Below, piece by piece: positions 10,456 to 58,353 of a DNA stretch of 64,000 nucleotides. Under the pieces are notes generated by a model that ran no database searches, had not been told where the DNA came from, and saw only the letters and a list, made by a program, of their open reading frames with translations. Location of the stretch: the NCBI RefSeq assembly GCF_964204645.1, contig NC_134028.1:15259653-15323652 (forward strand), given 5' to 3'. This DNA comes from Tubulanus polymorphus. Taxonomy: Eukaryota; Animalia; Nemertea. Position 1 is the first letter of the stretch; each line of letters opens with the position of its first letter. A program made the position numbers and the translations under genes.

Positions 10456-10914
10456 ATGCCAATTCTTGCTCGTGATCATTTGGCAGTTAAGCTGAGACAG
10501 AATTGGCTTGCCAGAACTCCTGCTGAAAGTAATAGCATAGCTGGAAACCTTGATGATAGCTTGACAAGCCTCAACTGGCTTCATAATCTAAACATTATGA
10601 AGATCGCAGTTCCTACTCCCCCCTCCAGTCCAATACCAAAAATCGAAGGTGCGCAGGATTACAATGTGAAAGTGAACCCTAACTCAATATTGAATATTGG
10701 AGTTCCTCTGTCTCAGGACACTGCTCCCTGTATGCCAATGTATGATAAGATAGATTACAAAACTAATCCCTATGTTAAGCCACCATATTCCTATGCTACT
10801 TTAATCTGTATGGCAATGAAGGAAACAAATAAGATGAAAATCACCTTGTCTGATATATATCACTGGATTACAGAGAACTACATGTACTATAGAATGGCTG
10901 ATCCAAGCTGGCAG
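10456..10914 (+). CDS. FOXJ1: Forkhead box protein J1, coding exon 1
   Basis: LDDSLTSLNWL motif and DYKTNPYVKPPYSYATLICMAM...ITLSDIYHWITENYMYYRMADPSWQ forkhead N-half. Upstream acceptor ttttcag; phase-0 donor CAG|gtaaga at 10914/10915. Confidence 0.93.
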
Positions 10915-12099
10915 GTAAGATATTGACAATTACCATGATACAACGTCTATGCTACCATTTACCTAATAAATTTTTTCTGACAGGCAATATCTTAGGTGAG
11001 GTTTCCTCTTGAGGTGAGGTATTCGGACACAAACTGAAGGTGCATTCTTCTCAAAATAGCCGTTTTCTTGATTATGCGAAACAGAATCATAGGCTGTGAT
11101 GAGGATTCCATCGCTGAGATTTCATCTATTAATTATTTTAATGTACATTATCAATCCAACTGAAAAATTTGTAGTCTTGAAACCCTGTTGTTCCCACAGG
11201 GTTTTTGCTAGTAAAATTAGATGTCAATATGAAAATATATAAGGAAGTTTTGCCAAAATAATTTATTATCGGACTTCTCCAAAATGGTGTATTAATGTAC
11301 CACTCGTGAAAGACTACAACGATAGGCCCCTTGTTTTGGGATTGGACCCATTAGTTTATATGAAGAATAATTAAGCTTACAAAACACCACAGAGCATGTG
11401 TCATCTCCTCGCATGGTCATTGAGGTGACCCAGTTTTTGTTGTCGCCACCAGAGGAAGTGGAGTGTTCACTATATGTACTTTGTCTATTTATATTGGTAC
11501 CTATGCATATTTTGTAATCACAATCAATTGCACATTAGTAGCTAATGACATTTTTAGTTTCGCTGTGACGGAAGGTTTAGTGGGTGGCCTACTTAGGCCT
11601 ACGTGACTGACCTTGCTTGAGCGTTCGTTGCTGGCGCACCGCTTCAAATGTTATAACTGATTGCTAATGACATACAACAAATAAACCTTTAAAGAAAGGT
11701 ACCTAGTGTCTTATATTCTACTGACTAATTCTGGATTGATTCACCGCATAGTTTTTTCATAGTGAGCATCTTAGTAGCCCTATGTGAATCAATTTAAATG
11801 ATTGATAGGCGCGGGTGCGGTTGTATCAGCTGTTGAAGACGTTCGATGTAAACAATAATATTAACCACATGCGTGATACAAACAGAGACATCAAACTGAG
11901 AAGCACTGAATTTCTGAATTACATGTGCTGGTTTTTCAAAAGTATAATCTTAATTGGCTTCTATTGCATAGACCTAAGCCAGGCCCTCTGGAACTGAATT
12001 GAATTTGACACAGTAATTCGCCTGGAATTTGCAATGAATCTTTTTGAAAATAAGCTTGAAGATTGGTTGTGAGGAGATGTCCACCCCTATCGTAAAAGA

Positions 12100-22649: not shown

Positions 22650-24480
22650 CTAACCCCTGGACCCTAAAGACCCTAAATCCGATTGAAAAGCTATTCTCTC
22701 GAAAACATGTATGTACTCACAAAACAATGACTTTAATTCCTCATATTGACAACTTTGAATATTAGAATGATTAATGTTACTTCTGCCATTAGTACTTTTA
22801 CATTGATCTACACGTTTGACAAGATTTAATTCTAAACGACTTTGTAATGATAACACATTAGGGACTTTGCTCTTGACAACTTCACGCTTAAGAGAATACT
22901 TTGTCGTTATACATCATTGGAATATCAACTGAGCCAAATGACTCCAATGGTTGACTACCAAACCCATAAATTCTGATGTTTAAAGGCTCAAGCAACGGTT
23001 TCATTGACTGATAACAACCAAACGAAACAACGTTAGTATCTCACCTGTCTCAATGTTAAAATTTACAAATCCACCTGGTGTCTGAAGCTTAACCTGCCAA
23101 TCCTTATCGACTGGACGATTAGGTCTACATGAAAATATGTAAACACGCTCAAAATGGCTGTACTTTTTTGCAATATCTACACTGTTACAGTGTAGATATT
23201 GCAAAAAAAGTGTTTCCTGTACGCCGGACATCTACCCGGATTATGGGTTGAGCCACAATTGTGACGAGACGATTGTGACACTCTATTACGCTACGAGAGT
23301 GACCACCTCTATTTGCGAATTGCGGAGCCCTTCGCTGTGAACCTCTATTAGTATACGGACTACGACTAAGCGAACGACCACGATTTGTCGGATTATACAC
23401 GCGACCGCGATTGGACGGAAATGATCCTCGTCTCCTACCACGTTGATAATCGACATTTGCAGATGCGGATTTGAGTAAACCTCCCTTGTCTGTTGTTGTT
23501 GTTCATACAGTTGAGCTTTGCTAACGATATCGTCTAGCGACGTGTCTTCTGTCCCCAACTTTTCTCTCAGTCACGTACACCATTCGATAGCTGAACACAA
23601 AGCTGATCGTTCAGGACTGTACCAGTATAATAGCAATGAGCGGCCAGCTCTTTCAAAGCTGTTAAATATTCGGAAAATTTCTCATTTTCTACCCCAGTGA
23701 AGTTCATTACTTGTTCCTTATTCCATTACTTATTGAGAATTCATCTCCCAATAAGGAACAACTAACATGTTACTTGTTCCTTATTCAGATTTTCTTGTTA
23801 CTTATTGAGAATAAGTAACAAGTAACATGTTACTTGTTCCTTATTGGGAAATTAATTCTCAATAAGTAACAAGAAAATCTGAATAAGGAACAAGTAACAT
23901 ATTACTTGTTCCTTATTGGGGGATGAATTCTCAATAAGTAATGGAATAAGTAACAAGTAATGAACTTCACTGGGGTGAACAAGTAACATGTTACTTGTTC
24001 CTTGTTCCTTATTCAGATTTTTTTCGTCTTTACCGGTTCAATTTTCGTAACTTATTGAGAATTCATGTCCCAATAAGGAACAAGTAACTTGTTCCTTGTT
24101 CCTTATTCAGATTTTCGTCTTTACCGGTTCAATTTTCGTTACTTATTGAGAATTCATCGCCCAATAAGGAACAAGTAACTTGTTCCTTGTTCCTTATTCA
24201 GATTTTCGTCTTTACCGGTTCAATTTTCGTTACTTGAGAATTCATCGCCCAATAAGGAACAAGTTAGGCCTACTTGTTCCTTATTGGGCGATGAATTCCG
24301 AATAAGTAATTGAATAAGTAACAAGTAATGAACTTCACTGGGGTCATTTACTTTCTGTTTCCTGTCTTGAAACTGGGTGATGTAACCTTTGCGCAAGCGT
24401 TTTGGTTCAAAGTAATCATCAAATGCCTTGATCACTCAAGTATAGATTTTCTTCTGTTCTTCAGTTAGGCCCAGATTATG
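22650..24480 (-). pseudogene. Ty3/Gypsy gag-protease remnant, 3' part
   Basis: Fragments VIKAFDDYFEPKRLRKGYITQFQDRKQK, SLDDIVSKAQLYE, Zn-knuckle-like HNCGSTHNPGRCPAY and degenerate protease VNFNIETG. Continues the gag broken at 42921. Confidence 0.75.
23691..24344. mobile_element. Foldback/MITE with palindromic internal repeats inserted in gag
   Basis: Ends accccagtgaagttcattac / gtaatgaacttcactggggt. Interior consists of ttacttgttccttatt / aataaggaacaagtaa inverted units. Confidence 0.75.
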
Positions 24481-24590
24481 CGGTGTTGTCATATCGCGGA
24501 ATCGCGGAATTTACAAAAAACAGAATTTCTTCATTTTCACTATATATAGTAACCGCGTTTTATAGCACCCTGAGATTTCCGCATCACAAG

Positions 24591-24680
24591 AGTAATTAGA
24601 AGATGGCGTTTTCAGATCAGAGTACGAGAGTACGAGACACCACTCATCACCACAAGTAATTTTTTTTCCTAATAAATGGG
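24591..24680 (+). repeat. Polinton left terminal inverted repeat
   Basis: agtaattagaagatggcg...cctaataaatggg is the exact reverse complement of 41665-41754. Confidence 0.97.
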
Positions 24681-25002
24681 AGATAGAAAAGCATTCTTAG
24701 CAACAATAAATAACAGAATAAAACCAGCAAAAAAACAATTTGAAATAAAAAAGTTAGTTGATGTTACAAAAGAAATTGAACATAAAATATTGAAATTAGA
24801 AAAGATAAAAACTAAATATGGAGAGAAAGTATCAGCTAATTTAAGCTACTGTAATGTTAGTACATCGCGAGAATTTAAAGTGTTTTTACCCGATAAATGG
24901 GTTTCATTGAGTACGGAGGAATTGAAAGATTTAGTAGGATTTAAAATAATATATCATGGGAAAAATGAAGACGGTCATCATGATTTAGAAATTGTTGATT
25001 AA
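24676..25002 (+). CDS. Polinton small hypothetical protein (108 aa), possibly OB-fold-like
   Basis: Intact ORF starting inside the TIR at TAAATG. Beta-rich pattern KIKTKYGEKVSANL...FKVFLP...IIYHG. Confidence 0.7.
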   Translation: MGDRKAFLATINNRIKPAKKQFEIKKLVDVTKEIEHKILKLEKIKTKYGEKVSANLSYCNVSTSREFKVFLPDKWVSLSTEELKDLVGFKIIYHGKNEDGHHDLEIVD

Positions 25003-25374
25003 ATAAGAAATAAAAATAATGAATATCTAGAATCCAAAATGACCTTAGTCGTTTTATAAACAACTACAATCATACAGTACATCTGTTACATATTATTATA
25101 AGAGAGTGCTTCATTTGAATATTGATCAATCAAACAGGTGTTGCACAACGTTGTTGTTATAATAAGCCCGTAGTACATACAACACACACAAACCAGTTAG
25201 CTGGTATTGAATTACTGCGTTTTCATTAGTTGCTGAAAACGAGGTTTATTTAAATTAGCTCGGCCGTGACGACAGGAGGATAGTCATCATTCTCTCGTGA
25301 TTAAAAGGAATATTTCAATGTTTTTACGGTAAGTTTTAGCAAAATTGCCCTATCCTCGACCTACAGAGTTTTCA

Positions 25375-25559
25375 GGGGATAAGCATCCCATTATTGAAAG
25401 GCGCCACGGGACGCTTATCCCCCGTCATTTCTACTTACACCCCCGGAGACCCACGTCAACCGGGATCTCCTTCAATGATTGGTAGAAATCACATTATATT
25501 AAAGGCGCCTAATGTAATTTCTACCAATCTCGAAATTCGAAACCGAAGGAGAAACCCGG
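25375..25559. ncRNA. Candidate structured non-coding RNA or DNA element of the Polinton
   Basis: 15-bp stem 25375-25389/25408-25422, 20-bp stem 25477-25496/25510-25529 and enclosing stem 25460-25473/25545-25559. Both loops contain AAAGGCGCC. Confidence 0.5.
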
Positions 25560-25974
25560 AGAGTGGACGAAGGTGCATTTTCAAAATGCCTCTGCTGGCC
25601 AGAGCTACTCCAGTGGTTGAATGAATTGCCTTATATACTTAGCTAAAACACCTAAGTAAATGTTGTTGGTGCTAAAAAAATATGTGAAATTTGAAATTAT
25701 AAATTATTCCGAATGAAAAGAATGTAAGAATGAAAACTGATAAGTGAATTATGTATTTTTAACTTAATTATGATATAATTTTTAATCAAATTAGTAATCA
25801 ATTACTATGTTAATTGATTAACAAATTCAAATATTCAAATAAAAACAAAATAAATTAATAAAAATAATGAATATCTAGAATCCGAAATGACTTATCTGGA
25901 CAATTTAATTGCTCCGCATAGATAGACAAAAGTAGTGAGATATTCAATTATTTTTTTGCTTTTTTTCTAAAATA

Positions 25975-26343
25975 TTAATCCATTTTTTTTATTATCAATT
26001 TTGGAATTTCAGAAGTATTTTCATTTTTGATAGCAGTTGTTTCAGAATTACTAATATCATGAATTTTATTTGATTTCTTATACCAATTACACCCAATCAA
26101 AATGAATACAATTACAAATCCAACTGTAAAATATAAATATTTATCAAATATTCTATTATCAGAAGGAGTAGAAATAACAATATTTTCACCATTTTTATTA
26201 ACATTTTTATTACTTATTTTTTCTTTTACAGCTTTTTTATATTCTTGTGATTTAATTCCTAATTGTCGAGACCATTCAATTTGTTTCTGAGTTCTCGGTT
26301 TTTTCTTCACAGTTAATTCCTTCACTTCTTTCACCTCGCTCAT
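25975..26343 (-). CDS. Polinton single-pass membrane protein (122 aa)
   Basis: TAAATG start, basic N-terminus, hydrophobic YLYFTVGFVIVFILIGCNWY. Homolog at 63308-63676. Confidence 0.8.
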   Translation of the reverse strand: MSEVKEVKELTVKKKPRTQKQIEWSRQLGIKSQEYKKAVKEKISNKNVNKNGENIVISTPSDNRIFDKYLYFTVGFVIVFILIGCNWYKKSNKIHDISNSETTAIKNENTSEIPKLIIKKMD

Positions 26344-26881
26344 TTATTATAGAAATATTTTTACTTTCAATATTTGAAAATGTTATAACCCCAGTTGATA
26401 ATAATGTCATAAATCCACCTAATTGAAATGATAAATATCCAATCCATTTATTTAATTCAGTCATAACTAAATAGTCATTTTTTAAATCGGAATATAATCT
26501 ATTTTCATTTTCAATTGGTAGTATATAATTACATAATTTACTATAACCTTTTACTACATTTTCTGATATCGCGTCATTAATTCTAGCTGTTCTCGCGGCT
26601 TCATAAATCTTAAATAATCTAATAATTTCATCTGATTTCATTGTATCTAATTCATTATAAGTTAAATTTTTACCGACAAAATTTTTACATTTTCCAGATG
26701 CTATTAATATTTCTAATTGATGTTTACAGAAAAGATAATATTCATAATTATTATTTGTTGTAACATTATTTAAAGCACCATCATCTGGAGTTAATTTTGT
26801 TTCTGTTATTCCTAAATCATCTAAAGTTTTTTCAATTGAAACATCACCATTTTTAGATTTTATTTTCTTTTCACCTCCCAT
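26276..26881 (-). CDS. Polinton conserved hypothetical protein (201 aa)
   Basis: TAAATG start. Clear homolog at 62710-63315 sharing IEKTLDDLGI, YEYYL.CKH and LYSDLKNDYLVMTEL. Confidence 0.85.
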   Translation of the reverse strand: MGGEKKIKSKNGDVSIEKTLDDLGITETKLTPDDGALNNVTTNNNYEYYLFCKHQLEILIASGKCKNFVGKNLTYNELDTMKSDEIIRLFKIYEAARTARINDAISENVVKGYSKLCNYILPIENENRLYSDLKNDYLVMTELNKWIGYLSFQLGGFMTLLSTGVITFSNIESKNISIINERGERSEGINCEEKTENSETN

Positions 26882-26912
26882 TTATATAACAAAAAAATTA
26901 ATTGTGTGATGT

Positions 26913-27132
26913 TGCAACTAGAATTTAACTAGAATTCAACTAGATTAACAAGCTAGTTGAAATATTGTTAAATCTAGTTGATTTTTGTTTCAACTACTAA
27001 CAACTAGAATTCAACTATAATGTAACTATAATTAAAATAGATTAACAAGCTAGTTAAAATATTGTTAAATCTATTTGATTTTTGTTACAACTACCAATAA
27101 CTAGAATTCAACTAGATTAACAAACTAATTGA
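26913..27132. repeat. Intergenic AACTAG/CTAGTT-rich degenerate repeat
   Basis: About two copies of a ~110-bp unit (agattaacaagctagtt.aaatattgttaaatcta.ttgatttttgtt) plus many caactagaatt motifs. Confidence 0.75.
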
Positions 27133-27150
27133 ATTTAAATAAATTCATAT

Positions 27151-27741
27151 TTAAATGGGTGTTGTAATAAATAGTAATTTTGATCTTTTAATATTTTTCA
27201 ACTCATCCATATATTCATTATGTAAATCATGTGGAATAATATCATTTTCCTCAAGTGCATTTTTCATCGATTTTCTATCTTTATTGTAGAATAAAACTAG
27301 AAATCTAATGTTTTCTCTAAAGTCTTTAACAATTGAATTATATTTTTGATTTAAAACCCAAGTTGTTATCCCAAAATGTCTCCCAGAGAAAGCTAAATAG
27401 CATAATTCACTTTCTCTAACTTTTGAATCATGTAAATTTGCACAATCATCTATGATAAATAATGTATTTGATCCTTTATAAATATCAATTGCTATTTTTA
27501 TACAATTATCTAAATTTTCTTTTACTGTTTTAGGATCTAATATAATAAATTTATTATTTCTAGTAATATTTCTATCATAAGTTTGATTAAATTCATATGT
27601 TGGACAAAATAATACTATATTATCAAAATAGTTTTTGTAAATAGTTTCTAATAAATTTAATATAAAATAAGTTTTTCCACAATTTGTTACACCAGAAATT
27701 AACATATTATGAGGCTCAAATATGAATAATTCCTTATTCAT
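27151..27741 (-). CDS. A32/FtsK-like genome packaging ATPase
   Basis: Walker A ISGVTNCGKT, Walker B LFIIDDC, and A32-type GRHFGITTWVLNQKY...REN. Confidence 0.92.
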   Translation of the reverse strand: MNKELFIFEPHNMLISGVTNCGKTYFILNLLETIYKNYFDNIVLFCPTYEFNQTYDRNITRNNKFIILDPKTVKENLDNCIKIAIDIYKGSNTLFIIDDCANLHDSKVRESELCYLAFSGRHFGITTWVLNQKYNSIVKDFRENIRFLVLFYNKDRKSMKNALEENDIIPHDLHNEYMDELKNIKRSKLLFITTPI

Positions 27742-28869
27742 TTATATATTTTTAATTTTACTTGATAATATCCATTCATTAAATTTATCTGGCCATCCAA
27801 CCCATTTTACTAAAGAATATTTTTTTCTTTTAATAGTTTTTGTTTTTAATACTTTTTCAATTTTATATTCTTGTTCTAGATTTTCAGTAGTTAAACTTAA
27901 TTCTTCTTCGTAAAAGTAACCATCAACTTCTTCACCATCTAAATCTTCTAATTTATAGACATATGGTTTTGTTGTTATTACCTTTTTTATTTTATATATT
28001 TCCCTAGTAAAATTTCGATCGTATCCTTTGTCAAATATCTTTTTATACTTAGATATTCTAACATTTTGACCAACTTTAAATTTAGGTTCACCAAAATCAT
28101 CTACAAGAAATGCTCCATATAAATTATTCCAAACAATTTCAGCATTTTCAGGTTTTCTAGCATCAATAGGTTTCATTCCAATAGAAGAATGATAAGAATT
28201 ATTATATCCTTCTATCAATTTTGGTAAAACATCAATCCATTTAAAAGTATTATTTGCTGTAAAATATTTCCACATTCTTGTTCTTAATGTTCTATTAAAT
28301 CGTTCAACAACTGCTGCTTTTTTATCTGATTTTGTTGAAAAATATTTAATATTATGATTATCTAAGAGTTCATGAACAAGTGAATTATCAAATTCTTTTC
28401 CATCATCAAATTGTATTTTTTCTGGTTTTAGTTTATCATCCGAAAGAAATTTTCTTAAAACATTTGATGTTTGTACAGCATCTTTTCTATAAAGTGGGAA
28501 GCTCCATACATAACGACTAAAAATATCAATTATATTCAATAACCACCAATAATCATCATTATCTTTCTTAACATTTTTCATATCAATTAAATCTCCTTGC
28601 CACTGTTGATCTACATAACTTACCATAGTTTTACGAGTTTTATATTTTCTAACAATTTTTTTATGTGTTGTATATGTTGGTTGTTCTAACATAAATTCAT
28701 TTATATCTTTATATTTAACTAAATTTTGTGGGATTATCTTATCTAATTTATCTTGTTTTACTTTACGCCATATATTTTTAGTAGAAGAATAAGCAACCGA
28801 ACTCTCAGGGTTGTAATATAAATTTCTTAAATATTGTTCTTTAGTATTAGGAGTTTTTTTACCACTCAT
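27742..28869 (-). CDS. Retroviral-like (RVE) integrase with C-terminal chromodomain
   Basis: DDE triad in WQGDLIDM / QFDDGKEF / VVERFNRTL. C-terminal YKIEKVL...LVKWVGWPDKFNEWI chromodomain. Confidence 0.95.
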   Translation of the reverse strand: MSGKKTPNTKEQYLRNLYYNPESSVAYSSTKNIWRKVKQDKLDKIIPQNLVKYKDINEFMLEQPTYTTHKKIVRKYKTRKTMVSYVDQQWQGDLIDMKNVKKDNDDYWWLLNIIDIFSRYVWSFPLYRKDAVQTSNVLRKFLSDDKLKPEKIQFDDGKEFDNSLVHELLDNHNIKYFSTKSDKKAAVVERFNRTLRTRMWKYFTANNTFKWIDVLPKLIEGYNNSYHSSIGMKPIDARKPENAEIVWNNLYGAFLVDDFGEPKFKVGQNVRISKYKKIFDKGYDRNFTREIYKIKKVITTKPYVYKLEDLDGEEVDGYFYEEELSLTTENLEQEYKIEKVLKTKTIKRKKYSLVKWVGWPDKFNEWILSSKIKNI

Positions 28870-28899
28870 TTATATATCCTTAATTTTAACTTTATATTT

Positions 28900-30147
28900 C
28901 TAATATTGAATACTATCTAATTGTGAATTTACAATATTTAATTGTGCGTCAGATATAATATAAATGTGCATTTTAAAATTTTTGATTCCTTTATTCTTTT
29001 TCATGAATAATTGTATTCCATCTTTAGTGTTCTGTAGTTTTTTTCCAGAACCATGTAATGAATTATCTTCTGTTGTTCTAAAATCTAACCATAATGCATA
29101 TTTATTACCGGTATAATAATCAATTTGATTAATATTACAATTTTCAAATGATTTTACTTTTTCATTCATAAAATGTTTTCTAATTTCTGGCCATTGATCA
29201 ATCATTCTCATTCCTTGACAAAATATTTTATTCGCTATTCCTTCAATTGTTATTTCTACTTTTGTTATTTCAGGATTATAATAATTATCAACATTTATTG
29301 CACCATTAGAATATGTTGCAATAGTAAAAAATATTAATATACCTTTAATAGATCTTCTTGGGAAAATAATATTCTCATTAATTATTTCATCATTTGCATT
29401 GATAGTTACAGTTTTAAATTTATCAATATAATCATATAATAATGAAAATCCTTGATTGTATTGAGTTTGAATTGTGCTAGCAATATTTTCATTAGTTACT
29501 GTGTTATATTCTAAACATATATTCGATAATTTATAACCCATATCTTTAACAACGCTAGATAATACAATTTAATTTACAGGAGCAAATGTTATCTCAAATA
29601 TAATATCTTCTTGAATTGCGTATTTATATAAAGGTGCATTATTATTTATCAATTCAAAGTCTAATGGAATTTTATATTTGCTTCCATAAATCTTTTTAAT
29701 CAAATTATCTACACCATTATTTACTACTGCGTTATTGGCTTCAGATCTTAATTTATTTTGGTTTTCTGATTGAATTCCTTGAAATATCATATTATTTCTA
29801 TTTTCTTTAGTTAACCATAAATCTTTATAATGTGAAAATAAATTATAATCATCTAATGAGAAAACTGTTTCTGGACCAATCTTTATTGTTAACTTTTTAA
29901 TCAAATATCTTCCAACATTATCAACAACATAATTATTATTATTACCGATTACTTTTATATCGGCTGATAAATAAATACTGTTTGGAACATAAAAAGTATT
30001 TTGTGTTAATTGAGGGATTCTAACGTATAAAGTTTCATCGGGATTAATATTTGAAGGGTTATGAGTAATTATATGATGTGATCTTTCTGCTTTAATAGCA
30101 TTAGATATTCTATGATTCTTCGAAGGACTTATATAACTCCCACTCAT
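28900..30147 (-). pseudogene. Major capsid protein (double jelly-roll) with one in-frame stop
   Basis: The 192-aa and 213-aa ORFs are in the same frame, separated by TAA (29569-29571) and 9 sense codons. About 415 aa, beta-rich, with the size and position expected for a Polinton MCP. Confidence 0.75.
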
Positions 30148-30187
30148 TTATTTAACAAAAAAATTAATTATTTATTTTTTATCATGT

Positions 30188-31617
30188 TTACTTGATATTT
30201 TTTGATATCATATTCACTAACCCAAAAATAATAGCACTTACAACTGTAATTAAAAATAAAATAATATGTTCAGCAGCAAAGTTAATAATGTTTCAGATTT
30301 CAATATAAAACCAACAATTGAAGCAATAATTCCTGGCAATGCTGCAGCAGATTTTTTAGATAGTTCCCATAAATATTTTGCTAATTTTTTTAAAAAACCA
30401 TCCTTAACTTTATCTTGTATAGAATTATTTCCTGGAGGTTTATCTGGTTTATTTGGAGTAGATTTCAAAGCATTTGATATTGCTAAACCAATTGTTGTAA
30501 ATAACATAGTTACAGCTGTTAGAATTGAAAGAATTGTTATTCCTTCTAATTTAAATAATAACTTCATCCTGTCTTTTAATGATATTTCAGAATTTGGTTT
30601 AATCAACAAATCTTTAAAAATAACTTTTAATCTATTAATATTATAATCATATGATTTTAATAATAATTTAATTTCTTCTTTCTGTACTTCTAAATTATCT
30701 TTTAAATTACTAATTTCTTTTTCTAAACGTAATTCTTTTTGCCTATATTCTATTTCATCAATTACTTGATGATCTAAATCAGACTTTAATTGTTCTATTT
30801 CTTTATTTTTATCAGTTAATTCTTTTTCCAAATACATAATTTTTTGATCTCTTATACTTTTATTATGTGCAATTTTATCAGATGCAAGTCTTATACTAAT
30901 AATTTCTCTAATTGCTTTATCAGAAAATATATCTAAATCTTCTAATTCTTGATCTGTTGCATCAAATAATCCATTCGGTAAAAGTTTTTCAATTGGAACT
31001 TTATTTGATCTAAGTTTACTATTTTTGGAAGTTATATTCTGTTCAGAAGTTGTTTCTGTTTCTGATTTCTTTTTGATTATTTCAAATAATTCATTAATTC
31101 TTTGTTTAAATACATCTATATTATCATCTATTTCTTTTTGTGTAACATCAGTTATTTCATTACTATTACTTATTATTTTAATTCTATCTGGTTTTAATTT
31201 TTCTAAAGTTGATTCTGATAATATTTTATTTTTATTATTTTTATAAGTGATATCAATATAATAATCACCTTTCAAACGATAATAACATTTACCATTATCT
31301 AAAAATTTCAATTGATCTGCTAAAAGTCCAACGTCTTCATCATTTATGTTAAAATTAGATTTTTCAATTAAATCTTCTAATTTAGGTATTTTGTTTAAAT
31401 TATCTAAATCTTGTTTTACTAAATCTGGGTCTAAATTTTCAGGATTTAATTGTGATTCAGCATTTTTAATATAATCAGGCATATTCAAATTATTATTATA
31501 TTCTGGCTCATTACCATCATTAAAACTTGTTTCATCAAAATCAGGTGGTTGTTCATCAGTTATGTTAGGTTCATCAAAAGGATCCATTCCAATATCTTCT
31601 CCACCTTCTACATCCAT
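30188..31617 (-). CDS. Coiled-coil membrane protein (~475 aa, probable frameshift near 30290)
   Basis: Acidic N-terminus, long heptad region, hydrophobic GITILSILTAVTMLFTTIGLAI and AAALPGIIASIVGFIL. An alternative frame continues NIINFAAEHIILFLITVVSAIIFGLV to a stop at 30188. Confidence 0.7.
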
Positions 31618-31633
31618 TTATATAATAAAAAAA

Positions 31634-32962
31634 TTAAAATTTAAAATATAATATTCCTCCTATAACAATTCCTATACAAGTTATAGCTAATTTAGTATTT
31701 TCATGGAATTTATTATCATCATTTAGTTTAATTACATCATGTTGAATTTTATCGGTTTTAATATCACCATGTGGGTGCCGTACGGCATCATTTTCTGATG
31801 TATTGTAATCTTTTATTTTAGAATCATTATTTAATTTAATATTCTTAATTTTAGTTTCAGTTGATTGAATGTGTTTTTTATTTTTTTCACCTTCCATTAA
31901 TTTTGGAGCAGTAATAAACTTTTTATTTATATCATTTAATCCAAATGAATTATTTATTGTTGCAGTTTTAATTAGATTATTATAACCAATTATACTACCC
32001 ATTTTTAATATTAAATCATTAGAAATAATTAATAGATTAGGGCCTATACAATAATTAAGTCTTACATGAGATTTATCTAAATAATTTTGATATCTTATAA
32101 TGTTTTCTGGAATCGATCTATTTTTATCATTATGAATTGAATCTTCAAATAAAACTTTAAACTGTTTCTGCGCATCGAATGAAGTGTTATCATTTCCAAT
32201 TATTTGGGATCTTGTTTCAACTTGAGCGCCTAAAATACATATCAAATAAATTCTAATAGATTGATTTATTCTTTGTATACCTGATTTTGTAAAACCTTCA
32301 CCATTTTCTAAAATGAAATTAACCCAACCATTATTATTATCAATTTTATAATTATGATAAGCTCCAATTCTATGCATATAATCAATTCTTTTTATTTCAT
32401 ACTGTTCACCAACACCTTGCAATTTACCATGCGCTCTGAAATCGGAATTAATATTTATATTAAATTCATTACATATTTTATAAAACTTGGATATATTAAT
32501 ATTATTATCCAATTCTTTAAAATATTTAGACCCGGGTAAAGGACATTCTAATTCATTTAATATTATTCTGATTTGAAAATATGTGTGAAATCTAAATATT
32601 GTGTGAATTAATTTTAAATCAGAATACTTCAAATTTTTATCTAAGTTATTTAAATGATCATTCCAACTTATTTCACATCCTGTTGTTGCACAATAAACAG
32701 CAAAATTTAATTGATTCTGCCAATATTTCATATTAGATTTTACTTTATACATATGATATTCATCTCGAGTAAAAGTAACTTCATATGTATTAAATATATT
32801 TTCCATTTTAGAAATAAAAAACTGTGATTCAGTAACATAAATTTCTAAATTAGTTAATGAATTTAAAACTATATTTTTATATGTAATATTTTTCTTAAAA
32901 TCTATTGCCGGAATATTATATTTAATTGATTTATTATATTGGAAAGCTTTTGGAAACCCCAT
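31634..32962 (-). CDS. Polinton hypothetical protein with C-terminal membrane anchor (442 aa)
   Basis: Long ORF with TAAATG start and C-terminal LAITCIGIVIGGILYFKF. Confidence 0.8.
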   Translation of the reverse strand: MGFPKAFQYNKSIKYNIPAIDFKKNITYKNIVLNSLTNLEIYVTESQFFISKMENIFNTYEVTFTRDEYHMYKVKSNMKYWQNQLNFAVYCATTGCEISWNDHLNNLDKNLKYSDLKLIHTIFRFHTYFQIRIILNELECPLPGSKYFKELDNNINISKFYKICNEFNININSDFRAHGKLQGVGEQYEIKRIDYMHRIGAYHNYKIDNNNGWVNFILENGEGFTKSGIQRINQSIRIYLICILGAQVETRSQIIGNDNTSFDAQKQFKVLFEDSIHNDKNRSIPENIIRYQNYLDKSHVRLNYCIGPNLLIISNDLILKMGSIIGYNNLIKTATINNSFGLNDINKKFITAPKLMEGEKNKKHIQSTETKIKNIKLNNDSKIKDYNTSENDAVRHPHGDIKTDKIQHDVIKLNDDNKFHENTKLAITCIGIVIGGILYFKF

Positions 32963-32978
32963 TTATATAACTAAAAAA

Positions 32979-33413
32979 TTAATAATTTATTAATTCTTTT
33001 AATAATTTATCTTGTTCTTCAACTGTTATATGGCCATTTAAACTTATTATATAATCTAGTGTGTTCTTTAATTTATTAATTTCTTTTATATTAGTTTTAA
33101 TTTTTTCTTTATTACTTTTTATATTTAATTTTGAACTTATACCGGTTAAAACACTTGAACTTAATCCTAATACACCAATTGATATAGCTAAAGGTGTTAA
33201 TGGGCTGAATATTGCTAAAAATGTTATTACAGAACTAATCGTAACCGAACCACTTATAATCAAATAATATATAATTTTACTTTTTAAATATTTTTTCTTT
33301 TTTATCTTTAAGTCACTTTCAAATTCTAATATTTGTTTTTCTAAATATATTTTTAATTTAGTTTTATTTATATCATGAGGAATAATATCAATACTATCAA
33401 CTTTATCTTCCAT
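32979..33413 (-). CDS. Two-TM hairpin membrane protein (144 aa)
   Basis: TAAATG start. Central hydrophobic stretch flanked by basic coiled-coil segments. Confidence 0.78.
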   Translation of the reverse strand: MEDKVDSIDIIPHDINKTKLKIYLEKQILEFESDLKIKKKKYLKSKIIYYLIISGSVTISSVITFLAIFSPLTPLAISIGVLGLSSSVLTGISSKLNIKSNKEKIKTNIKEINKLKNTLDYIISLNGHITVEEQDKLLKELINY

Positions 33414-33432
33414 TTATTTAGAATAAAAATTA

Positions 33433-33855
33433 CTAATTAGTAAACTTATAAGCAACAAATATAACAATAACTGTTCCACCTAAAATCCATATTATTTCAT
33501 ATTTCTGTTGTTCTTTACTTGGGGTATAATAATCTGATAATTTAGGTTTGTATAGATGTAATTTTTCTTTATTTGTTACTGCGTTATATAAACTCATTGC
33601 ATCATCAACTGATTGAAAATCTCTATGTGAAATCTTCTGATCATATAATTCTTTATTGATGTAATCCATATAGTTTTGCCTCTTTTCTCTATATTCTTCT
33701 GCAGCTTTATTGTATTTCTCTAACGCTAAGTTATGTCTTCTTTGTTCTCCTAATGAACTATTTTTATCAATATGTTTAAATAAATAACCACCACCAGTAA
33801 ATGCTAAAGCGTTAACAATTGCTGATCCTATAATAGTTATAATTGCAGAAGCCAT
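33433..33855 (-). CDS. Membrane-associated protein (140 aa)
   Basis: TAAATG start, hydrophobic N-terminus MASAIITIIGSAIVNALAFTGG and C-terminal IIWILGGTVIVIFVAY. Confidence 0.8.
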   Translation of the reverse strand: MASAIITIIGSAIVNALAFTGGGYLFKHIDKNSSLGEQRRHNLALEKYNKAAEEYREKRQNYMDYINKELYDQKISHRDFQSVDDAMSLYNAVTNKEKLHLYKPKLSDYYTPSKEQQKYEIIWILGGTVIVIFVAYKFTN

Positions 33856-33880
33856 TTATTTAGCAAAAAAAATTATGCAT

Positions 33881-34096
33881 TTATATGGGAGGAATATATT
33901 TTTGTTTTTCTAAATAATCAATAGTTAAATTAGATAAAGTAACTGCTAATGTTAATTTTAGAATATCATTGATATCAAATCTATCAACATTTCCCATTTT
34001 GAATACTTTTTTTAATACCATTGAATAACCAACAGTTCCAACTGATAGTAATGCTCCATTATATAATCCAGTTATTATCCACTTATTATCACTCAT
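33881..34096 (-). CDS. Small hydrophobic protein (71 aa)
   Basis: TAAATG start. A related copy at 58354-58500 conserves the frame. Confidence 0.78.
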   Translation of the reverse strand: MSDNKWIITGLYNGALLSVGTVGYSMVLKKVFKMGNVDRFDINDILKLTLAVTLSNLTIDYLEKQKYIPPI

Positions 34097-34456
34097 TTAT
34101 TTATCAAAAAAATTACTATCATCAAAATATTTAGTTATCTTAGTGATTATTAATTCAACATTTATTTTATTACTAGTTTTATGATTATCATATATTTTGG
34201 ATAATATGTTTTTAATATCATCGATGATAAAATCTTCATCTAATTCATAAAATCTTAAAGATTCTCTAATTAAATTAGTAATCTTTTCTACATTTAAAGT
34301 TTCTTTATCAATTGTTGTTTCATACTCAAATGTTGTTTCATAAGAAAATGCAATATTTTTGATATGTGTAATTACATCATTAATATTAAATTTCATTTCT
34401 TTCTCACGTTTAAAATCAAACCCAAAACATATACTCGGTCCAACAGTTATATTCAT
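34097..34456 (-). CDS. Polinton hypothetical protein (119 aa)
   Basis: TAAATG start; its stop abuts the next ATG. Confidence 0.7.
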   Translation of the reverse strand: MNITVGPSICFGFDFKREKEMKFNINDVITHIKNIAFSYETTFEYETTIDKETLNVEKITNLIRESLRFYELDEDFIIDDIKNILSKIYDNHKTSNKINVELIITKITKYFDDSNFFDK

Positions 34457-34472
34457 TTATATAGGTGAAAAA

Positions 34473-35225
34473 TTACTCTTTACATCTTATAACTAATTCA
34501 TAAATTACAGGAAAGTTATTCAAATCAATTAAGTATCCATTATGATTTCTTATTTCTAATTTAAAATTATTAAATTGAGGAATACAAGGTTTGAAATCAC
34601 ATTCAGCTAAATTATAATTTATTTGCGTTCCAAATTCTTTAACATTCTTCAATGGTAAAATGTTTAGTAAACCAGAATTACAAGTTATATCTTTAGTTGC
34701 TTCGAATGTTTTTGTAGGATCAATTAAATTGCAATAAATATAAAAATGTGTAAAAGGCATTAAGTTTGATTTACCTTCTGCGTATGCTGTAACAATATCT
34801 GGGTTAATTCCTAACAGTTTACCTAAAGGTTTTCTTACTGTAAATTTAAATTGTTCGTCTAACCTAATCTTTATTTTATTAGAACTAGCACTTTTTAAAA
34901 TTCTAATATTAAATCCAGAATCACTTCCTAATTTAGCTCGAGCTTTTCTATTAATTTCTTGTGCTAATGTATTTAAATTATATAATCCTGGTTTTAAATA
35001 TATAAAAAACCATTTATTCCTTTTTTTATAAAAGATTGAAAAAATTAAATGTTCAAGACTTTTATCCGTTACATTGTAAAAAGAATTACATAAACTTATA
35101 TTTACTAATTTTAAATCAACGCAATTCTTAAATTCTCTATCTAATTGTACTAATAAATTATGAGATTTATAATTTGTAAGTTTTCTAGAATCAACAAATA
35201 TTCTGTATTCTTTTAATTCTACCAT
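34473..35225 (-). CDS. Minor capsid protein (penton, single jelly-roll)
   Basis: Pattern IFVDSR...NSFYNV...PGLYNL..L...IN...LLGI...YIYCNLI...KLEIRNHNGYLIDLN..PVIYELVI, typical of Polinton/NCLDV pentons. Confidence 0.8.
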   Translation of the reverse strand: MVELKEYRIFVDSRKLTNYKSHNLLVQLDREFKNCVDLKLVNISLCNSFYNVTDKSLEHLIFSIFYKKRNKWFFIYLKPGLYNLNTLAQEINRKARAKLGSDSGFNIRILKSASSNKIKIRLDEQFKFTVRKPLGKLLGINPDIVTAYAEGKSNLMPFTHFYIYCNLIDPTKTFEATKDITCNSGLLNILPLKNVKEFGTQINYNLAECDFKPCIPQFNNFKLEIRNHNGYLIDLNNFPVIYELVIRCKE

Positions 35226-35293
35226 TATTTATAACATAAAAAAATTACCGCTCATCACTAAAAATTAATTTTAATAAAATTTTTCCTTAATAA

Positions 35294-36610
35294 ATGGATG
35301 AGACGATAGCATGCGAAATTTGTGGTGAACTTCTAAGAAAAAGTAATATGGCTCGACATATGAAAAAACATGATGAAAATTATAAACCCCCTAAAATAAA
35401 CTGTCCAAATTGTAATAAAACATTCTCTAGAAATTATTTCAAAAAACATTCAGAGAAGTGTAAAAATAATAACTTAATAGTTAATGTTGACAGTAACGAA
35501 AGTAATAATAATTCTGTTGAAGTTGAACCTGAAATTATTTGGAAAAGACCTTTCTTATTCTATGATAAGGATAATATAAAAGATCATTTCTGTGAGCCTT
35601 GTCGAATAAAATATAACCCTGAAAATATAGAAGATTGGGAGAATCATCAATTTCGTAAAGTACATATAGATAAAATTTCTAATAAATTTGAAACTGAATT
35701 CAATGCAAGAAAAAATAATTTATTAGAAAAAATAAAATATGAGAAAACGTTACCAGATAATGAAGAAACAGTTGAAAAGTTAGAAAAACAATATAATGAA
35801 TTAACAAGAAAAACATATTATTGTAAATATTGTAAATTGATTATTACAACAAGTAATTCAAATCTACATAATAGAACAATAAAACATAAAGAAAACGTAA
35901 GAAAATACCAAGAGCTTAATGAAGATCTATTACCAGTAAATTATAAACAAAAATGCCCACAATGTATTTATGCGACCTTAAGGCAAGAAGGTACTGTGTT
36001 ATTTTGTGTTGATTGTGGATGGCAAAGGAATTTATGGGGTGAAGAAAAAACTAGAAATTTTCTTATAGAACCAAAATTAAATTATCTTGATGAAATTTTT
36101 AAAATATTTTCTATAGAAGATCATACACCAGAATATATGCAATGGCTTGAAAAAATGAAAATAATAGAAAATAAAAATGGTGAAATAACTAAAAAAGATA
36201 TTATAAAAACAATTATTCCACCAACATTTAACACAAAACAAAAGAAAATGTATTTATATTTATTATTTAACGATTATTATGAAAAACCTAAATTAACAGA
36301 AGAAGATATGGAAAATATAAAAAAAATATTTAAACAAATATTAATATATCATTTGGAAAATAGAATAACAGATTCAATAAATTATGAATTCTTTTTAAAT
36401 AAGATTGTAAATTATTTAAACCTAGATATTATAATTCCATTTGATGAATTAACAAACAAAAAGAAACAAAGAGTGCGAGATGAAATGTGGAACAAGATAG
36501 AAATTTATTTAAATGAGAAAAATGGAATGGAAGAAGAACCTGAACAATTAAATGAAAATGAAGAAGCTAATAGTGATTTCGAGTATGATGATATTGATTT
36601 TATGTTTTAA
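35294..36610 (+). CDS. Zinc-finger protein with C-terminal VLTF3-like (poxvirus A2 / NCLDV late transcription factor 3) domain
   Basis: Four N-terminal C2H2/C2HC fingers and a CPQC..CVDC ribbon, then PKLTEEDMENIKKIFKQI...SINYEFFLNKIVNYLNLD...LTNKKKQRVRDEMWNKI, matching the VLTF3 C-terminal pattern as I recall it. Confidence 0.72.
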   Translation: MDETIACEICGELLRKSNMARHMKKHDENYKPPKINCPNCNKTFSRNYFKKHSEKCKNNNLIVNVDSNESNNNSVEVEPEIIWKRPFLFYDKDNIKDHFCEPCRIKYNPENIEDWENHQFRKVHIDKISNKFETEFNARKNNLLEKIKYEKTLPDNEETVEKLEKQYNELTRKTYYCKYCKLIITTSNSNLHNRTIKHKENVRKYQELNEDLLPVNYKQKCPQCIYATLRQEGTVLFCVDCGWQRNLWGEEKTRNFLIEPKLNYLDEIFKIFSIEDHTPEYMQWLEKMKIIENKNGEITKKDIIKTIIPPTFNTKQKKMYLYLLFNDYYEKPKLTEEDMENIKKIFKQILIYHLENRITDSINYEFFLNKIVNYLNLDIIIPFDELTNKKKQRVRDEMWNKIEIYLNEKNGMEEEPEQLNENEEANSDFEYDDIDFMF

Positions 36611-39600
36611 TGGCTATAAGGTAATGTTTTTATACCATCATCTGAAATATGCCTTTTATCATCAAATGGATTTAAACTAGTTTTTTCAACTTCATTAATG
36701 TACATCTCATGATCTTCTGATCTTAAACAATTCATTTTGTGTTTCATTACAATTGATTTATATAAACACTTTATATAATCTTGAAATTCTATATGTTTAT
36801 CAACCACATGTTTTGTTATTCCTTTTAACTTTTTAGCTTCATGATCTTTTGTTCTGTAACTATACATTTTACTTCTTATCCCAACAAATTCAATCATTTC
36901 ATCACCCCCTAATTCATCTTTAAATTTACCAGGAATCTTTTTATTATCATTGCTAAACAATTCATGATCTTTGGGGTAATTGCTAAAATCAAAATAATGT
37001 TTTAATGTTTTTAAGTCTTTTGTTATATTATTTGTCTTGATTTTTAGTATGTAGGCGTCAGTATTGACCGCTATTAATGGAAATCCACAGTTAAATGTAC
37101 CATCTTCAGTTGATAAATCATAAACATAATCTGTTGGGTTATATATTTCAAATAAATCCTTAACTTCTTCTGTTAACTCATTTTCTACATGGCTTAAATT
37201 AAAGCAATTTGGTTTAGATTTAATCAATCCAATATTCATATTAAATCCTAATGAAGTGCATAATATATTCAATCCTGATATAGCAACTTTTCCTTTTTGA
37301 GCTAAAGATATTGTTTTGCGGTTTTGGAAACTTTTTGAACCATCTGCTGCATAGAATCCAATGAAGAACCATTTTCTTAAATTATTTTTTGCATTTAATA
37401 CATAATCTGGAACTATCTTTTCTTTTGTTGAAGTATTACTTTTCACTATTGCATGAATATAGAATTCGTTATTATATTTTATAGCAAAATCTTTAGGATT
37501 ATTCACATGTATTCTATAACATTGTGATGATTTCATAACATCTATGATTTTGAATGTTTTATGTGAATAAACTTCTTCACAGAATTTCTTAATTCTTTCT
37601 AATAATTTTTAAGTCTTGATTGCATAAATACCAACAATATTTAGTTCCACTAACATAATTATACACACCTGCTGAACCATCACCCATGAAAAATCCTTTG
37701 ATAAAATATTCTTTTTCTTCCAATGTTTCGGGTTCTATATTATAAATATTATCAATTATTTCATCAAATGATATATGATTCATTCTTAGGAAAAATCTTT
37801 TATGTAATAATTCATCTCCAATTTTTATATCAGTTGGTTTTATTTCATTACCATTTTGTTTAATCAAACTATGGTCTTCAGTAATATCAACAAATCCTAA
37901 TTTAGTTCTAACTCTATAGATTTTCTTATTCGTTTTATGTCTAATTATATTCTTTAATTTTGTCCATCCATTTCTTGTCCAAACATCCATTAAACCATTT
38001 ATTTGTATTAATTCTTTTTCTCCATATGAAATATAACATTCATTTTGTTTTGGAATTATTTCTGAAATTCTTCTTATCAATATTTTATCATTACATTTTA
38101 ATAATATTGGGGTGTCTGCTGTAACAGAATCAAAGTATAGAATTTCTATATTCTTTTCCCCAAAATGAGGTTGTAATACATTATAATAGAATTCATACAT
38201 TAGTAATTTTGATAATTCTAAAACAGTCGAACCAATAAATATAGGTTTATTGAATTTAATAGACGTTCTTTTTAATTTTACCGCGGTTAAATAATCCTCA
38301 AATCTTTTATTTCCTAAATGTCTAGGACTTGATTGTAGGTGTCTCAATCGTTCAGAATTATTTACTAATTCAATATCATTTCTATTTCTAATATTTTCAC
38401 ATGTTTTACCATAAAAACTATTATTCATTAATTTGAAGAAATCTTTTTCAAAATCTGTTTTTGATATGGTTCTCTGTTGAGTATTGAAATCTATATATTT
38501 TTCTAACCACTTTGATTGATTAAATTCAATATATCTATGTACTTTCTTTAATTTCATTCCTTGTTTTAGATAAAATTTTAACATTCTATAATGAACAATA
38601 TAATTGTATTTATTATTTTGAGTAAGTATTAATTTTTCTGTAAAAACATGATCTTTCGGTTTTATTTTCTTCTGGTATTCACTTAAATAACTATCATCTA
38701 CAGTTAAATGTTCTGGGCAATAAGGTAAGTTTCTTGTTTTAAACTTTATATTTTCAGGATATTCTAAATCAACTACAAAGAAATAACCAATTGGTGCTTC
38801 ATCTTTTAAACTAATAATTGCGCTTTCCCAATCAGTTTTATCACCATTTTCAACTTCTGTTAATATAAAATTTTTATATGGTTGAGGTTGCATCATTGCC
38901 CAACCATATAAATTATTGGCGTCAATATATAATAATTTATATTCATCATTTGCTTTAAAATACCTATCTCCCATAACACCACTAATTCCACCTCTAATTG
39001 ATTTTTCAAATAATAAAACCATATCTGGTTCTTTTAATAAATCTAATTCTACATTTGTATATTTTAAACCACATTGCCAGGTTAAACCAGGACTAGAATA
39101 ACAATAACAAGGATCAACATTAAAATGATTCAAATTAACTTCTCTAAATTTTTCAAATATGTCAGCCAATATCATAACATCTGATTTTAAATATAAATCA
39201 ACTAATTCACCATGATTTTTCATCTTAAAATGGTTCCAAATATTTAATGTTCTATTAAACACTTCATCTTTCACATACTCCTCTTTTAATTGATCATAAA
39301 ATTGATCTTTTAATAATTCTGTTACATTAAAATCATCATGTGTTTTATAAAATGAATAAGGAATTGCGCCTTTATATCTCAATAATTTAAAATCTTGTTC
39401 ATTTGGATAATAATATCGAGTTATAACAAAATCATTATCAACTAAACTTTTTGATAAATTATCTAATGAACTTGCTAGAAATCTATAAGAATCTAAAAAT
39501 CTAATGCAACCAAATTGAAATGAAATATAATTTTCAGATGTTTTAGCTAATAGTTTAAAATCATATTTTCTTACATTTATACCATTCATAGCATTATATT

Positions 39601-41669
39601 CTTCTATTTCTTGATTAATTGCGCCCAATTTTCCCGATAATTGTTTTATAAATAGATGGGTATCATAGCCTGATAAATTATGAAATAATATTGGTACGAA
39701 ATTAACTTTCTTAGCTTGTAAATTGCAATCTTCATGAGCAGCTCCACGATATTTTGAATTCAAATGATCATGATCTCTAACTCTTTTATCAAATGAATAA
39801 AAACGTTTTTCACAATAACAACAATGAGTTGCATAATTAAAATCAATTTCATCTTCTTTTGTCATAACTATTCTTTTATTTTTGTTTAATAATTTTGTAA
39901 AATCACTTTCTAATTCAATCACAACAAAAATCATTAACTACATTTTCACCTCTAAAAGAAATATATTGACTTTCATATAATTCGGGATAATTTGATTTGA
40001 TGTAAATTCCATAAGCAGCAGCTCTTTGATGAACTTTTTTAATTGTATTTATAATTGGTGGGTCTTGTATTGCGTCTTCATTTAATTCATTTCCTTTATC
40101 CATTGATTTTAATAATTGCTTTTTGTTATATATTTCTTTTCTATCTTGATCAGTTAATTCTTTATTCAACGATTCAAAATCCCCATAAATTACAAATGGA
40201 ACAATATTTTTAAATTTATGATTAGTAAATTTCAATTTATAATCTTTTTCTGTTGGCATTATTAATTTACAAAAATCTTTATTATCACATAATTCTTTAT
40301 GTTTTAATAATGTATTCTCAGTTCTAAATTTAGATAAACATTTTCTACATAGATAAATTTTATGGCTGTTAAAATCACTTTCTGTTCTAAAGAATAAATC
40401 AATTTGATTTAACCACATATAATGTTCATTTTCATCTTTTTTGTAATATAACAAATCTATAGCATTTTCATCATCATAATATTCTGTTAAATATAAAGCT
40501 TCCAATGTATAATCTTTAATATTTTCACCTTTTGTCTTTGGTAATTGCATTAATTCGAATACATTTATTTTTAAATTATTAATTTTTTCGATTTTAGGAA
40601 TCATTTTTATAGTTACTGGATATTGATCAATTTTATATAATGTTTCATATTTCCGATAATCTGTTATTCTACAAACATTTTCCTGTGTTGGATGTAAGCA
40701 ACTAATAATTGACCATAGAAAACATTTGTTGTCTTCATTTTGAACATTTATTACTGCTTTTGTTGTAAACGGTAATTTGATATAACTTGATGCTTTCATA
40801 TCTTTTTCTGTTATAAAGTTTGAATCATTTTTAAACATTTTATTACTTTTTGATGTTTTATTTCTTTTTGTATTATAAACATTTAAATCTAAATATATAA
40901 TTTCATTCAATGTTAAGCCAGAACCCTCAAAATATCTTTCTTCAATATGACGTTTAAATTCATTTAATATTTTTTCTAACTTCTCTTTTATTTGTGTTTT
41001 TGAAATTATTTCTTCAGAGTGTGTTTGAATATTATAATTCATTTTTTCTTCTGACTTTATAAAACTTACTTTCCCAGAGATACTAATTTTTGGATATTCA
41101 ACATCTGTTATCAAATCTAGTAATTTTTCTATTATTTCATTAAATTTACTATAATCTTCTATTGTTGTACCTTTAAAGAATCTAAATATAATAGCTGCAG
41201 GACCAATTTTACTATGTAATGTTTCTAAGATTTCAATTGTATCTTTTATTTCTAGTGAATCAATATAATTTCTAACATTTTCCATGTAAGGTTTATTTGA
41301 AATGGATTTAGTTTTTGAAGTTGGTTTTTTTACTTTTTGAGTTTTATCGTCAAAATAATCTTTTCTTAAAACATTATTACTCAAATTTTGGTGGTGTTTT
41401 TGTGATTCGAGATGTCTATTATAATTCCTTTTTACTATAAATTCATTACAAACTTCACATTTTATTTCATCCACATTCATATTTTCTAATCGTTCTTTTC
41501 TTTCATTGGAATTTTCTGGAGTTTCAAAATCTATAACATTTTTTATATGATTTGAAGATTTTTCATGTTTAGATTTATTAGATTTATCGATGTATTTTTT
41601 ACAATATTGACAATAATATTGATTTTTATTGACATTATTGTTTTCTAGTTGGTGTTCATTCTCCCCCAT
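36607..41669 (-). pseudogene. Protein-primed family B DNA polymerase with intein and two frameshifts
   Basis: Exo I YGDFES, Exo II FHNLSGYD, Exo III YLKSDV, Pol A YIDANNLYG, Pol B KLMNNSFYGK, Pol C YFD/TDA, GKFKDE and RSKMY. EndoVII-like CCYC..DHDH..CN insert. Frameshifts at ~39925 and ~37607. Confidence 0.95.
37063..38128 (-). mobile_element. Intein with LAGLIDADG homing endonuclease (~355 aa) in PolB motif C
   Basis: Block A SVTADTPI, block B VDITEDHSL, LAGLIDADG motifs FIKGFFMGDG and FFIGFYAADG, block F YVYDLST, terminal Asn followed by +1 Thr. Removal restores YFDTDA. Confidence 0.92.
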
Positions 41670-41754
41670 TTATTAGGAAAAAAAATTACTTGTGGTGATG
41701 AGTGGTGTCTCGTACTCTCGTACTCTGATCTGAAAACGCCATCTTCTAATTACT
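41665..41754 (-). repeat. Polinton right terminal inverted repeat
   Basis: Exact reverse complement of 24591-24680. Confidence 0.97.
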
Positions 41755-49911: not shown

Positions 49912-50330
49912 CTAGCTCGCAAATCTTTGGTAGTACATACCTGATAAAGGTCTCAATAGGACCAGAAAGGACAGGCAGTCGACCTAAATCATCATTTTTA
50001 ATTTATTTGAAACTGTATTGAAGGATATCCAAAAAGTCTTCATTGAAAGGGGTTAAATGAAGAGAAGTGATTCCATGATTTGAAAGTTTAACAATATGTT
50101 TCCATGCCTACGTACCAAACTTCAGTTGGTAGGCATGGAGACATATTGTTAAACTTTCAAATCATGGAGTCTCTTTTCTCTCAGGAACCCCTCTCAATGC
50201 AGAATTTTTGGATGTCCTTCAATACAGTTTAAAGTGGATTAAAAAACAATTTTTTTAGGTCCACTGCCAATGCATTCTGTTCCTAATAAGACTTCTATCA
50301 GGTATGTACTACCAAAACTGACTGAGCTAG
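49912..50330. repeat. Imperfect ~420-bp palindrome (MITE-like)
   Basis: Arms tttggtagtacatacctgata / tatcaggtatgtactaccaaa and ccatgatttgaaagtttaacaatatg / catattgttaaactttcaaatcatgg. Confidence 0.75.
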
Positions 50331-58350: not shown

Positions 58351-58353
58351 TCG

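Follow-up and report, generated by a model that had tools for sequence, protein, structure and literature searches.

A twin-hairpin island with a shared GGCGCC loop in a Polinton of Tubulanus polymorphus: a candidate minus-strand kissing-loop RNA

In the 64,000-nucleotide stretch of Tubulanus polymorphus DNA analyzed here (the window), a GC-rich island inside an endogenous Polinton/Maverick element forms two long hairpins that carry nearly the same loop on unrelated stems. The structure is real and improbable, and it is apparently undescribed; the internal argument for a function of the loop is good, and the data across copies are weak. Here, we tentatively propose, with less than even confidence, that the island specifies a minus-strand non-coding RNA with two copies of one loop, which kisses through GGCGCC so that copies of the RNA chain together. 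This confidence is the product of those in three component claims: that the island structure is under selection, which is highly probable; that the active molecule is RNA rather than ssDNA, which is probable; and that the loops serve for kissing rather than for another purpose, which is moderately favored.

The island is carried by element 1, a Polinton at positions 24591 to 41754 (17.2 kb, both ends complete) that is defined by its terminal inverted repeats (TIRs), target site duplication (TSD), pPolB, integrase, and ATPase. The TIRs are 94 nt long and 99% complementary, and a 6-bp TSD, CACAAG, is present at both flanks. Polintons are described as 13 to 25 kb long with TIRs of 100 to 1500 bp and TSDs of 5 to 8 bp (10.1101/2023.08.22.554363); the size and TSD of element 1 fall within these ranges, and its 94-nt TIR is just below. 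A Pfam scan of the 18 element ORFs identified pPolB (PF03175, E 1.9e-19), an rve-chromo integrase (PF00665, E 2.5e-10), an A32-type packaging ATPase (PF04665, E 1.6e-13), and a weak Capsid_N match (E 0.0024) in a gene split into two ORFs; neither a maturation protease family nor an HUH nuclease or recombinase family was found among them. Both the polymerase gene and the capsid gene are fragmented, with pPolB split across three ORFs. The 26 to 42 kb part of the window has a GC content of 0.21 to 0.29 and dense ORFs; the viral genes of element 1 have a GC content of 0.23, and the host 0.37 to 0.38. In keeping with an animal host, the surrounding DNA contains a Forkhead ORF at 10423, and the eukaryote-named relatives of the integrase are from a ribbon worm (48%) and a fish (42%). 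A second Polinton fragment (element 2) begins near 60.7 kb, and no tRNA was found in the 64-kb window. An initial reading of the sequence alone had described a compact AT-rich genome; this "genome" proved to be a Polinton that has integrated into a eukaryotic chromosome.

Between ORF108 (plus strand) and ORF122 (minus strand) lies a non-coding module of host-like GC content (25044 to 25820), in a 972-nt gap with a GC content of 0.355. This gap is the sole spacer of element 1 longer than 269 nt and corresponds to the gene-free part of about 1 kb that had been noted around the island. The longest ATG-initiated ORF of the module encodes 49 amino acids. A direct repeat of ~33 nt bounds the module, and its second copy runs into a conserved motif, designated motif M and described below. 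Element 2 has an 830-nt non-coding module before its own motif M. The two modules share a start segment of 57 to 66 nt (25073 to 25129 and 61628 to 61694) with a 19-nt exact match, and only 1 of 200 local shuffles reached its alignment score. Their centers could not be aligned in either orientation (56 to 64 of 200 shuffles were as good), and the module of element 2 contains a different long imperfect hairpin at 62214 to 62310, with a fold of −49.1 on the plus strand versus −36.2 on the minus strand. The outline of this hairpin is pre-miRNA-like; the second module gave no Rfam match. We infer that the module is an accessory cassette exchanged between the Polintons of this host, with its structured content turning over.

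On the minus strand, hairpin 1 (25373 to 25424) has a 19-bp stem with three G–U pairs and a 14-nt loop, GGCGCCUUUCAAUA (25405 to 25392), and hairpin 2 (25477 to 25529) has a 20-bp A/U-rich stem with one G–U pair and a 13-nt loop, GGCGCCUUUAAUA (25509 to 25497). The predicted minus-strand fold places hairpin 2 on a long lower stem with a three-way junction (25436 to 25577), whose small side hairpin occupies 25530 to 25540. The two hairpins and the further stem under the second were thus found where the sequence-only reading had placed them. The GC content of the island is 0.48, within a module of 0.355. Folding of both strands against shuffled sequences, a check proposed in that reading, confirmed a structured island and the suspected strand preference: the minus strand folded at −106 kcal/mol (z −10.16) and the plus strand at −79.9 kcal/mol (z −6.44), with 0 of 200 shuffles as low in either case. 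The same preference is seen for hairpin 1 (−33.8 minus, −24.3 plus), hairpin 2 (−25.0 and −19.9), and the predicted lower stem and junction (−72.2 and −54.1). Because the minus strand is also better with DNA energies (−56.2 versus −47.8), the strand bias cannot tell RNA from ssDNA. Near-perfect stems of at least 16 bp gave 10 entries, at nine places, in the whole window; of these, hairpins 1 and 2 alone fall between 24590 and 41755. Watson–Crick pairs occupy 15 of the 18 positions examined in hairpin 1 and 19 of 20 in hairpin 2. All four non-Watson–Crick pairs of the two stems are A–C on the plus strand and G–U on the minus strand (p 0.06), as had been suggested, although the single mismatch ascribed to each stem holds for hairpin 2 and not for hairpin 1, which has three (two internal and one terminal).

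Aligned with one indel, the loops of the two hairpins have the same letter at 13 of 13 positions, and both open with GGCGCC; none of 200,000 random loop pairs scored as well. The string AAAGGCGCC occurs exactly twice in the 64 kb, both times in the island. When the stems were anchored at the loop, only 6 of 18 pairs were alike, which is about the expectation from composition (match probability 0.27). The description of the hairpins as unrelated stems with nearly the same loop therefore stands: what the two hairpins have in common is the loop, and the helices that carry it can be exchanged. We rejected as covariation the 12 of 18 pairs in which both partners differ from one hairpin to the other, since any two unrelated hairpins give the same result. 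Both self-complementary palindromes are predicted to be exposed, with unpaired probabilities of 0.91 to 1.0 for their bases. A GGCGCC loop–loop duplex is calculated at −14.1 kcal/mol in any combination, a value that ignores loop geometry, and the chance of a GC-only 6-nt palindrome in a random 13-nt loop is 0.2 to 1.1%. A sequence resembling the plus-strand loop of hairpin 2, TATTAAGGCGTT, is present in the second module at 61886 to 61897; no hairpin was seen there by eye, and the resemblance is probably due to chance.

In the proposed mechanism, an RNA of ~230 to 380 nt would start from the TATA at 25637 and end either at the T run (25341) or at the AATAAA (25245); alternatively, it might originate as a read-through 3′ UTR of ORF122. 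The minus-strand RNA would fold and display two GGCGCC loops, each of which could pair with the loops of other copies as kissing loops, and the two sticky ends per RNA would then give dimers, rings, or chains. Pairing between molecules would probably be favored because the predicted long arm makes it unlikely that the two loops meet in one molecule. Selection would act on the loop sequence and on the pairing of the stems, not on the stem sequence, and the RNA might act as a scaffold or a double-stranded decoy that is accessory and specific to its lineage. The candidate transcription signals, all on the minus strand, are a TATATAA that may be a TATA box (25631 to 25637, ~60 nt before the structure), the first T4 run after hairpin 1 as a possible Pol III end (25341 to 25344), and the first AATAAA after the island as a possible Pol II end (25245 to 25250); such matches are too short to be evidence of use. 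The T4 run is kept in the loose-end letters of a diverged copy of the region, and contig depth is higher over 25622 to 25715 in all three aligned runs with the region, which is a weak hint. As to the surroundings of the island, it is bracketed by palindromic T4/A4 units (25333 to 25345 and 25576 to 25590) and flanked by an inverted pair of GTTTTAGC at 25333 and 25642 to 25649.

Six loci of related Polintons were found in metagenomes (L010 to L015), none of which is a whole element. The island, whose homologs the sequence-only reading had suggested collecting from such relatives, is absent from all six, which have GC contents of 0.20 to 0.24 and contain neither GGCGCC nor a GC island; the module was not found in them either. 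In L010, the homologue of the gene preceding the island is followed by a 95-nt spacer. The island is therefore likely to be accessory, and an essential role as a packaging RNA, one of the functions suggested earlier, is doubtful given its absence from six of six related, partial loci. The region itself was present in four sequencing runs of one study, possibly including the source of the window, and three of them were aligned over 24400 to 25800. Across the island, the contigs of these runs comprise near-identical ones and at least one type that has diverged. Over 25291 to 25527, the diverged type differs from the window by 35 other letters and 5 gaps. Among the 40 of 96 differences that were listed, 24 lie in 25409 to 25489; 11 of these 24 fall in the two stems and none in the loops; the partner arms and the second loop are near contig ends, and changes there may be among the other 56. 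If the partners are taken as unchanged, the 11 listed stem changes leave a pair on the minus strand only in six cases, on both strands in one, on the plus strand only in two, and on neither in two, so that 4 of 11 would cost the minus-strand pair if there was no matching change in the partner. Stem transitions that disrupt a Watson–Crick pair left G–U on the minus strand in 6 of 8 cases, but 6 of 8 listed transitions outside the island have the same direction, and the direction of change thus gives no strand support. The arms of each hairpin carry five to six listed changes. The lower stem is poorly kept in the diverged copy, with many substitutions and indels at 25444 to 25465, and 25528 to 25606 is skipped or replaced. 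Contigs are about as deep over the island as over the flanks of the module, at roughly a tenth of the depth over ORF108; this hints, at most, that island and module move together and are missing from many related elements.

Searches for further copies gave no convincing candidates. Rfam returned five matches at E up to 10 over 24400 to 27200, all far below the gathering threshold and none over the hairpins, and the module had no match in phage and plasmid DNA. The twin-loop pattern hit nine loci in viral contigs, all of which were tandem or coding repeats or chance. Single-loop patterns hit 25 and 23 loci; together with earlier ones, 0 of 55 lay in a stem with at least 14 of 17 pairs. Six exact 18-nt matches to the arm of hairpin 2 in viral contigs lie in coding-like DNA, extend by at most 2 nt, and were taken as chance. 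ORF201 and the integrase had no relatives in the viral contigs.

Among known systems, the island most plausibly works like the loops of retroviral dimerization initiation signals (DIS) or of oskar and would be a member of neither family. The oskar SL2b/OES of Drosophila has a long A/U-rich stem and a GC-only six-base loop palindrome (CCGCGG; GGCGCC here), and it dimerizes by kissing (PMC11567897). The combination of an A/U-rich stem with a GC palindrome is the build of SL2b and was counted in favor of kissing, whereas oskar has one hairpin in the 3′ UTR of a host mRNA and the island has two predicted copies on unrelated stems in viral DNA. A GC-rich six-base palindrome is likewise found in HIV-1 DIS and in pal II and PBS pal of MMTV, and GGCGCC itself can act as a contact in MMTV (PMC4264320). 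However, the retroviral signals pair RNA genomes and a Polinton packages DNA. The loops of the island are 13 to 14 nt long, and their palindrome begins with the very first base of the loop and lacks the purines that flank it in HIV-1 (AAGCGCGCA), which counts against kissing. Also against the proposal, another seven or eight loop letters are shared, more than kissing alone demands, and the predicted hairpin of the second Polinton module is of another kind and favors the opposite strand. Rings or chains built from two loop contacts per molecule are known from the phi29 prohead RNA and the bicoid 3′ UTR (PMC7357161), in which the two loops are different and complementary; in the island, the same palindrome would be used twice. 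The phi29 RNA is part of the packaging motor, whereas the island is missing from related loci and has no Rfam match. Like Polintons, phi29 uses a protein-primed polymerase.

The sharing of the additional loop letters is accommodated by a rather unlikely alternative, in which the same RNA presents its loop as an aptamer for a host or viral RNA-binding protein, acting as a decoy or in export or localization, with a palindrome that has arisen by accident. The two hairpins agree as closely in the U/A-rich half of the loop as in GGCGCC, and two loop copies on free helices would suit a two-site decoy; the low chance of a GC-only palindrome in such a loop, given above, argues against it, and we know of no protein motif that matches the loop. 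The next alternative, which we consider unlikely, dispenses with RNA: hairpins on the strand displaced in protein-primed replication, or cruciforms, would present the loop to a protein or keep copies of the genome joined. Strand displacement is general for the pPolB family, the minus strand is preferred with DNA energies as well, and motif M follows the same plan in related elements, with a fixed core closed by different stems. This ssDNA signal is opposed by the lack of HUH nuclease and recombinase families among the element ORFs and by L010, in which a matching gene junction has its 95-nt spacer and no island. Quite improbable is a double microRNA/shRNA cassette whose arms give 20- to 22-nt guides, resembling the Pol III dumbbell pri-miRNA of foamy viruses, in which two stem-loops likewise lie close together in a non-coding part of the virus (PMC7693620). 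The two near-perfect 19- to 20-bp hairpins suit it, as do the lack of an internal T4 on either strand over 25373 to 25577 and, among the 40 of 96 differences listed, the lack of changes at nucleotides 2 to 7 of the 5′ arm of hairpin 1 or the 3′ arm of hairpin 2. In the foamy virus dumbbell, however, the function resides in the arms, and microRNAs usually have arms that are better kept than loops. Here, the arms vary, both between the hairpins and through the listed changes in each, and the loop is the shared part, so the microRNA precursors suggested earlier fit poorly. In addition, no Rfam microRNA matched the island, no target with fewer than four mismatches was found in the window, and the T run is ~30 nt away from hairpin 1.

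A comparably low probability is given to a passenger origin, in which this Polinton lineage captured host DNA or a small non-autonomous transposon whose hairpins either had a function in the donor or were produced by template switching. The host-like GC content of the module, the ~33-nt direct repeat at its bounds, the inverted GTTTTAGC flanking the island, and the richness of the host in long palindromes are consistent with this origin. Identical loops on unrelated stems are nevertheless not expected from neutral decay, there is no depth spike over the island (a weak point), and the host MITE named earlier as a refuting find gave no sign: the window has no second copy, and contigs cross from the island into the module flanks (25315 to 25584 and 25291 to 25527). 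Finally, a Pol III transcript that diverts dsRNA sensors in the manner of VA RNA, also suggested from the sequence, is very improbable. Polintons are kin to adenoviruses, and the island has a similar size, long helices, and T4 runs at both ends. VA RNA is a short, GC-rich helical unit from a related virus lineage, as here, and its hallmarks are box A, box B, and a central GGGU–ACCC pair (PMC7589676). With consensus patterns for the boxes, 25250 to 25750 gives only one-mismatch matches, and neither strand of the island contains an exact box A or box B; GGGT is found at the island on the minus strand only and ACCC on the plus strand only, so the pair is never on one strand, and Rfam gave no VA match. 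Judged by these sequence hallmarks, the island does not belong to the VA RNAs.

Polintons have been characterized through their proteins, and searches of the openly accessible literature (titles and abstract openings) showed no report of a Polinton non-coding RNA. The minus-strand kissing-loop RNA, if true, would add a function at the RNA level, place it in the likely ancestors of adenoviruses, and provide a natural two-valent kissing-loop RNA. A more far-reaching version, which we regard as speculative and improbable, is a two-armed Polinton RNA that polymerizes into rings or networks, as a eukaryotic counterpart of phi29 pRNA or a viral mimic of the oskar signal for germ-line clustering, encoded in an exchangeable non-coding cassette whose structured RNA would differ among the Polintons of a single host.

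Motif M, which follows the module at 25877 to 25945 and recurs at 62393 to 62465 and in L010 at 2451 to 2519, has a 69-nt non-coding core with ~83 to 86% identity among three Polintons, in each of which the neighboring genes differ. Long A/U-rich stems of differing sequence close the core in element 2 and L010, and by eye its inner helices could form a pseudoknot. It had no Rfam match, and a profile of the motif found no loci in viral contigs; a bacterial locus agreeing at 25 of 69 profile positions was taken as chance. Motif M is a candidate novel structured RNA, possibly a 3′-end signal or ribozyme, and the support across elements is better for it than for the island. In L010, the place of motif M and the module of element 1 is taken by an extra 213-aa ORF (10340 to 10981), which comes after the ORF122 homologue and has a P-loop kinase-like start by eye.

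The polymerase gene of element 1 (36607 to 39934, minus strand) contains an intein-like insert with a LAGLIDADG-like domain at the YFD/TD motif (weak Pfam matches). The insert is broken between two ORFs, and the related polymerase in L013 reads across the motif without it; homing endonuclease inserts have been mentioned for Polinton polymerases (PMC11161782). A T-rich TATAAATG/TAAATG motif, likely a common promoter, lies directly 5′ of the start codons of most element 1 genes (26879, 30145, 31615, 32960, 33853, 34094, and others). Short TAACTAG/GCTAG tandem repeats are found 5′ of ORF201 in three elements (26915 to 27143, 62500 to 62660, and L013 5000 to 5090). The host DNA contains a lone 200-nt fragment of the element 1 type (58342 to 58540, 94% to 33866 to 33991) and many long inverted repeats of the MITE or foldback type (23691 to 24344, 47266 to 48723, 49912 to 50330, 51563 to 52027, and 60400 to 60674).
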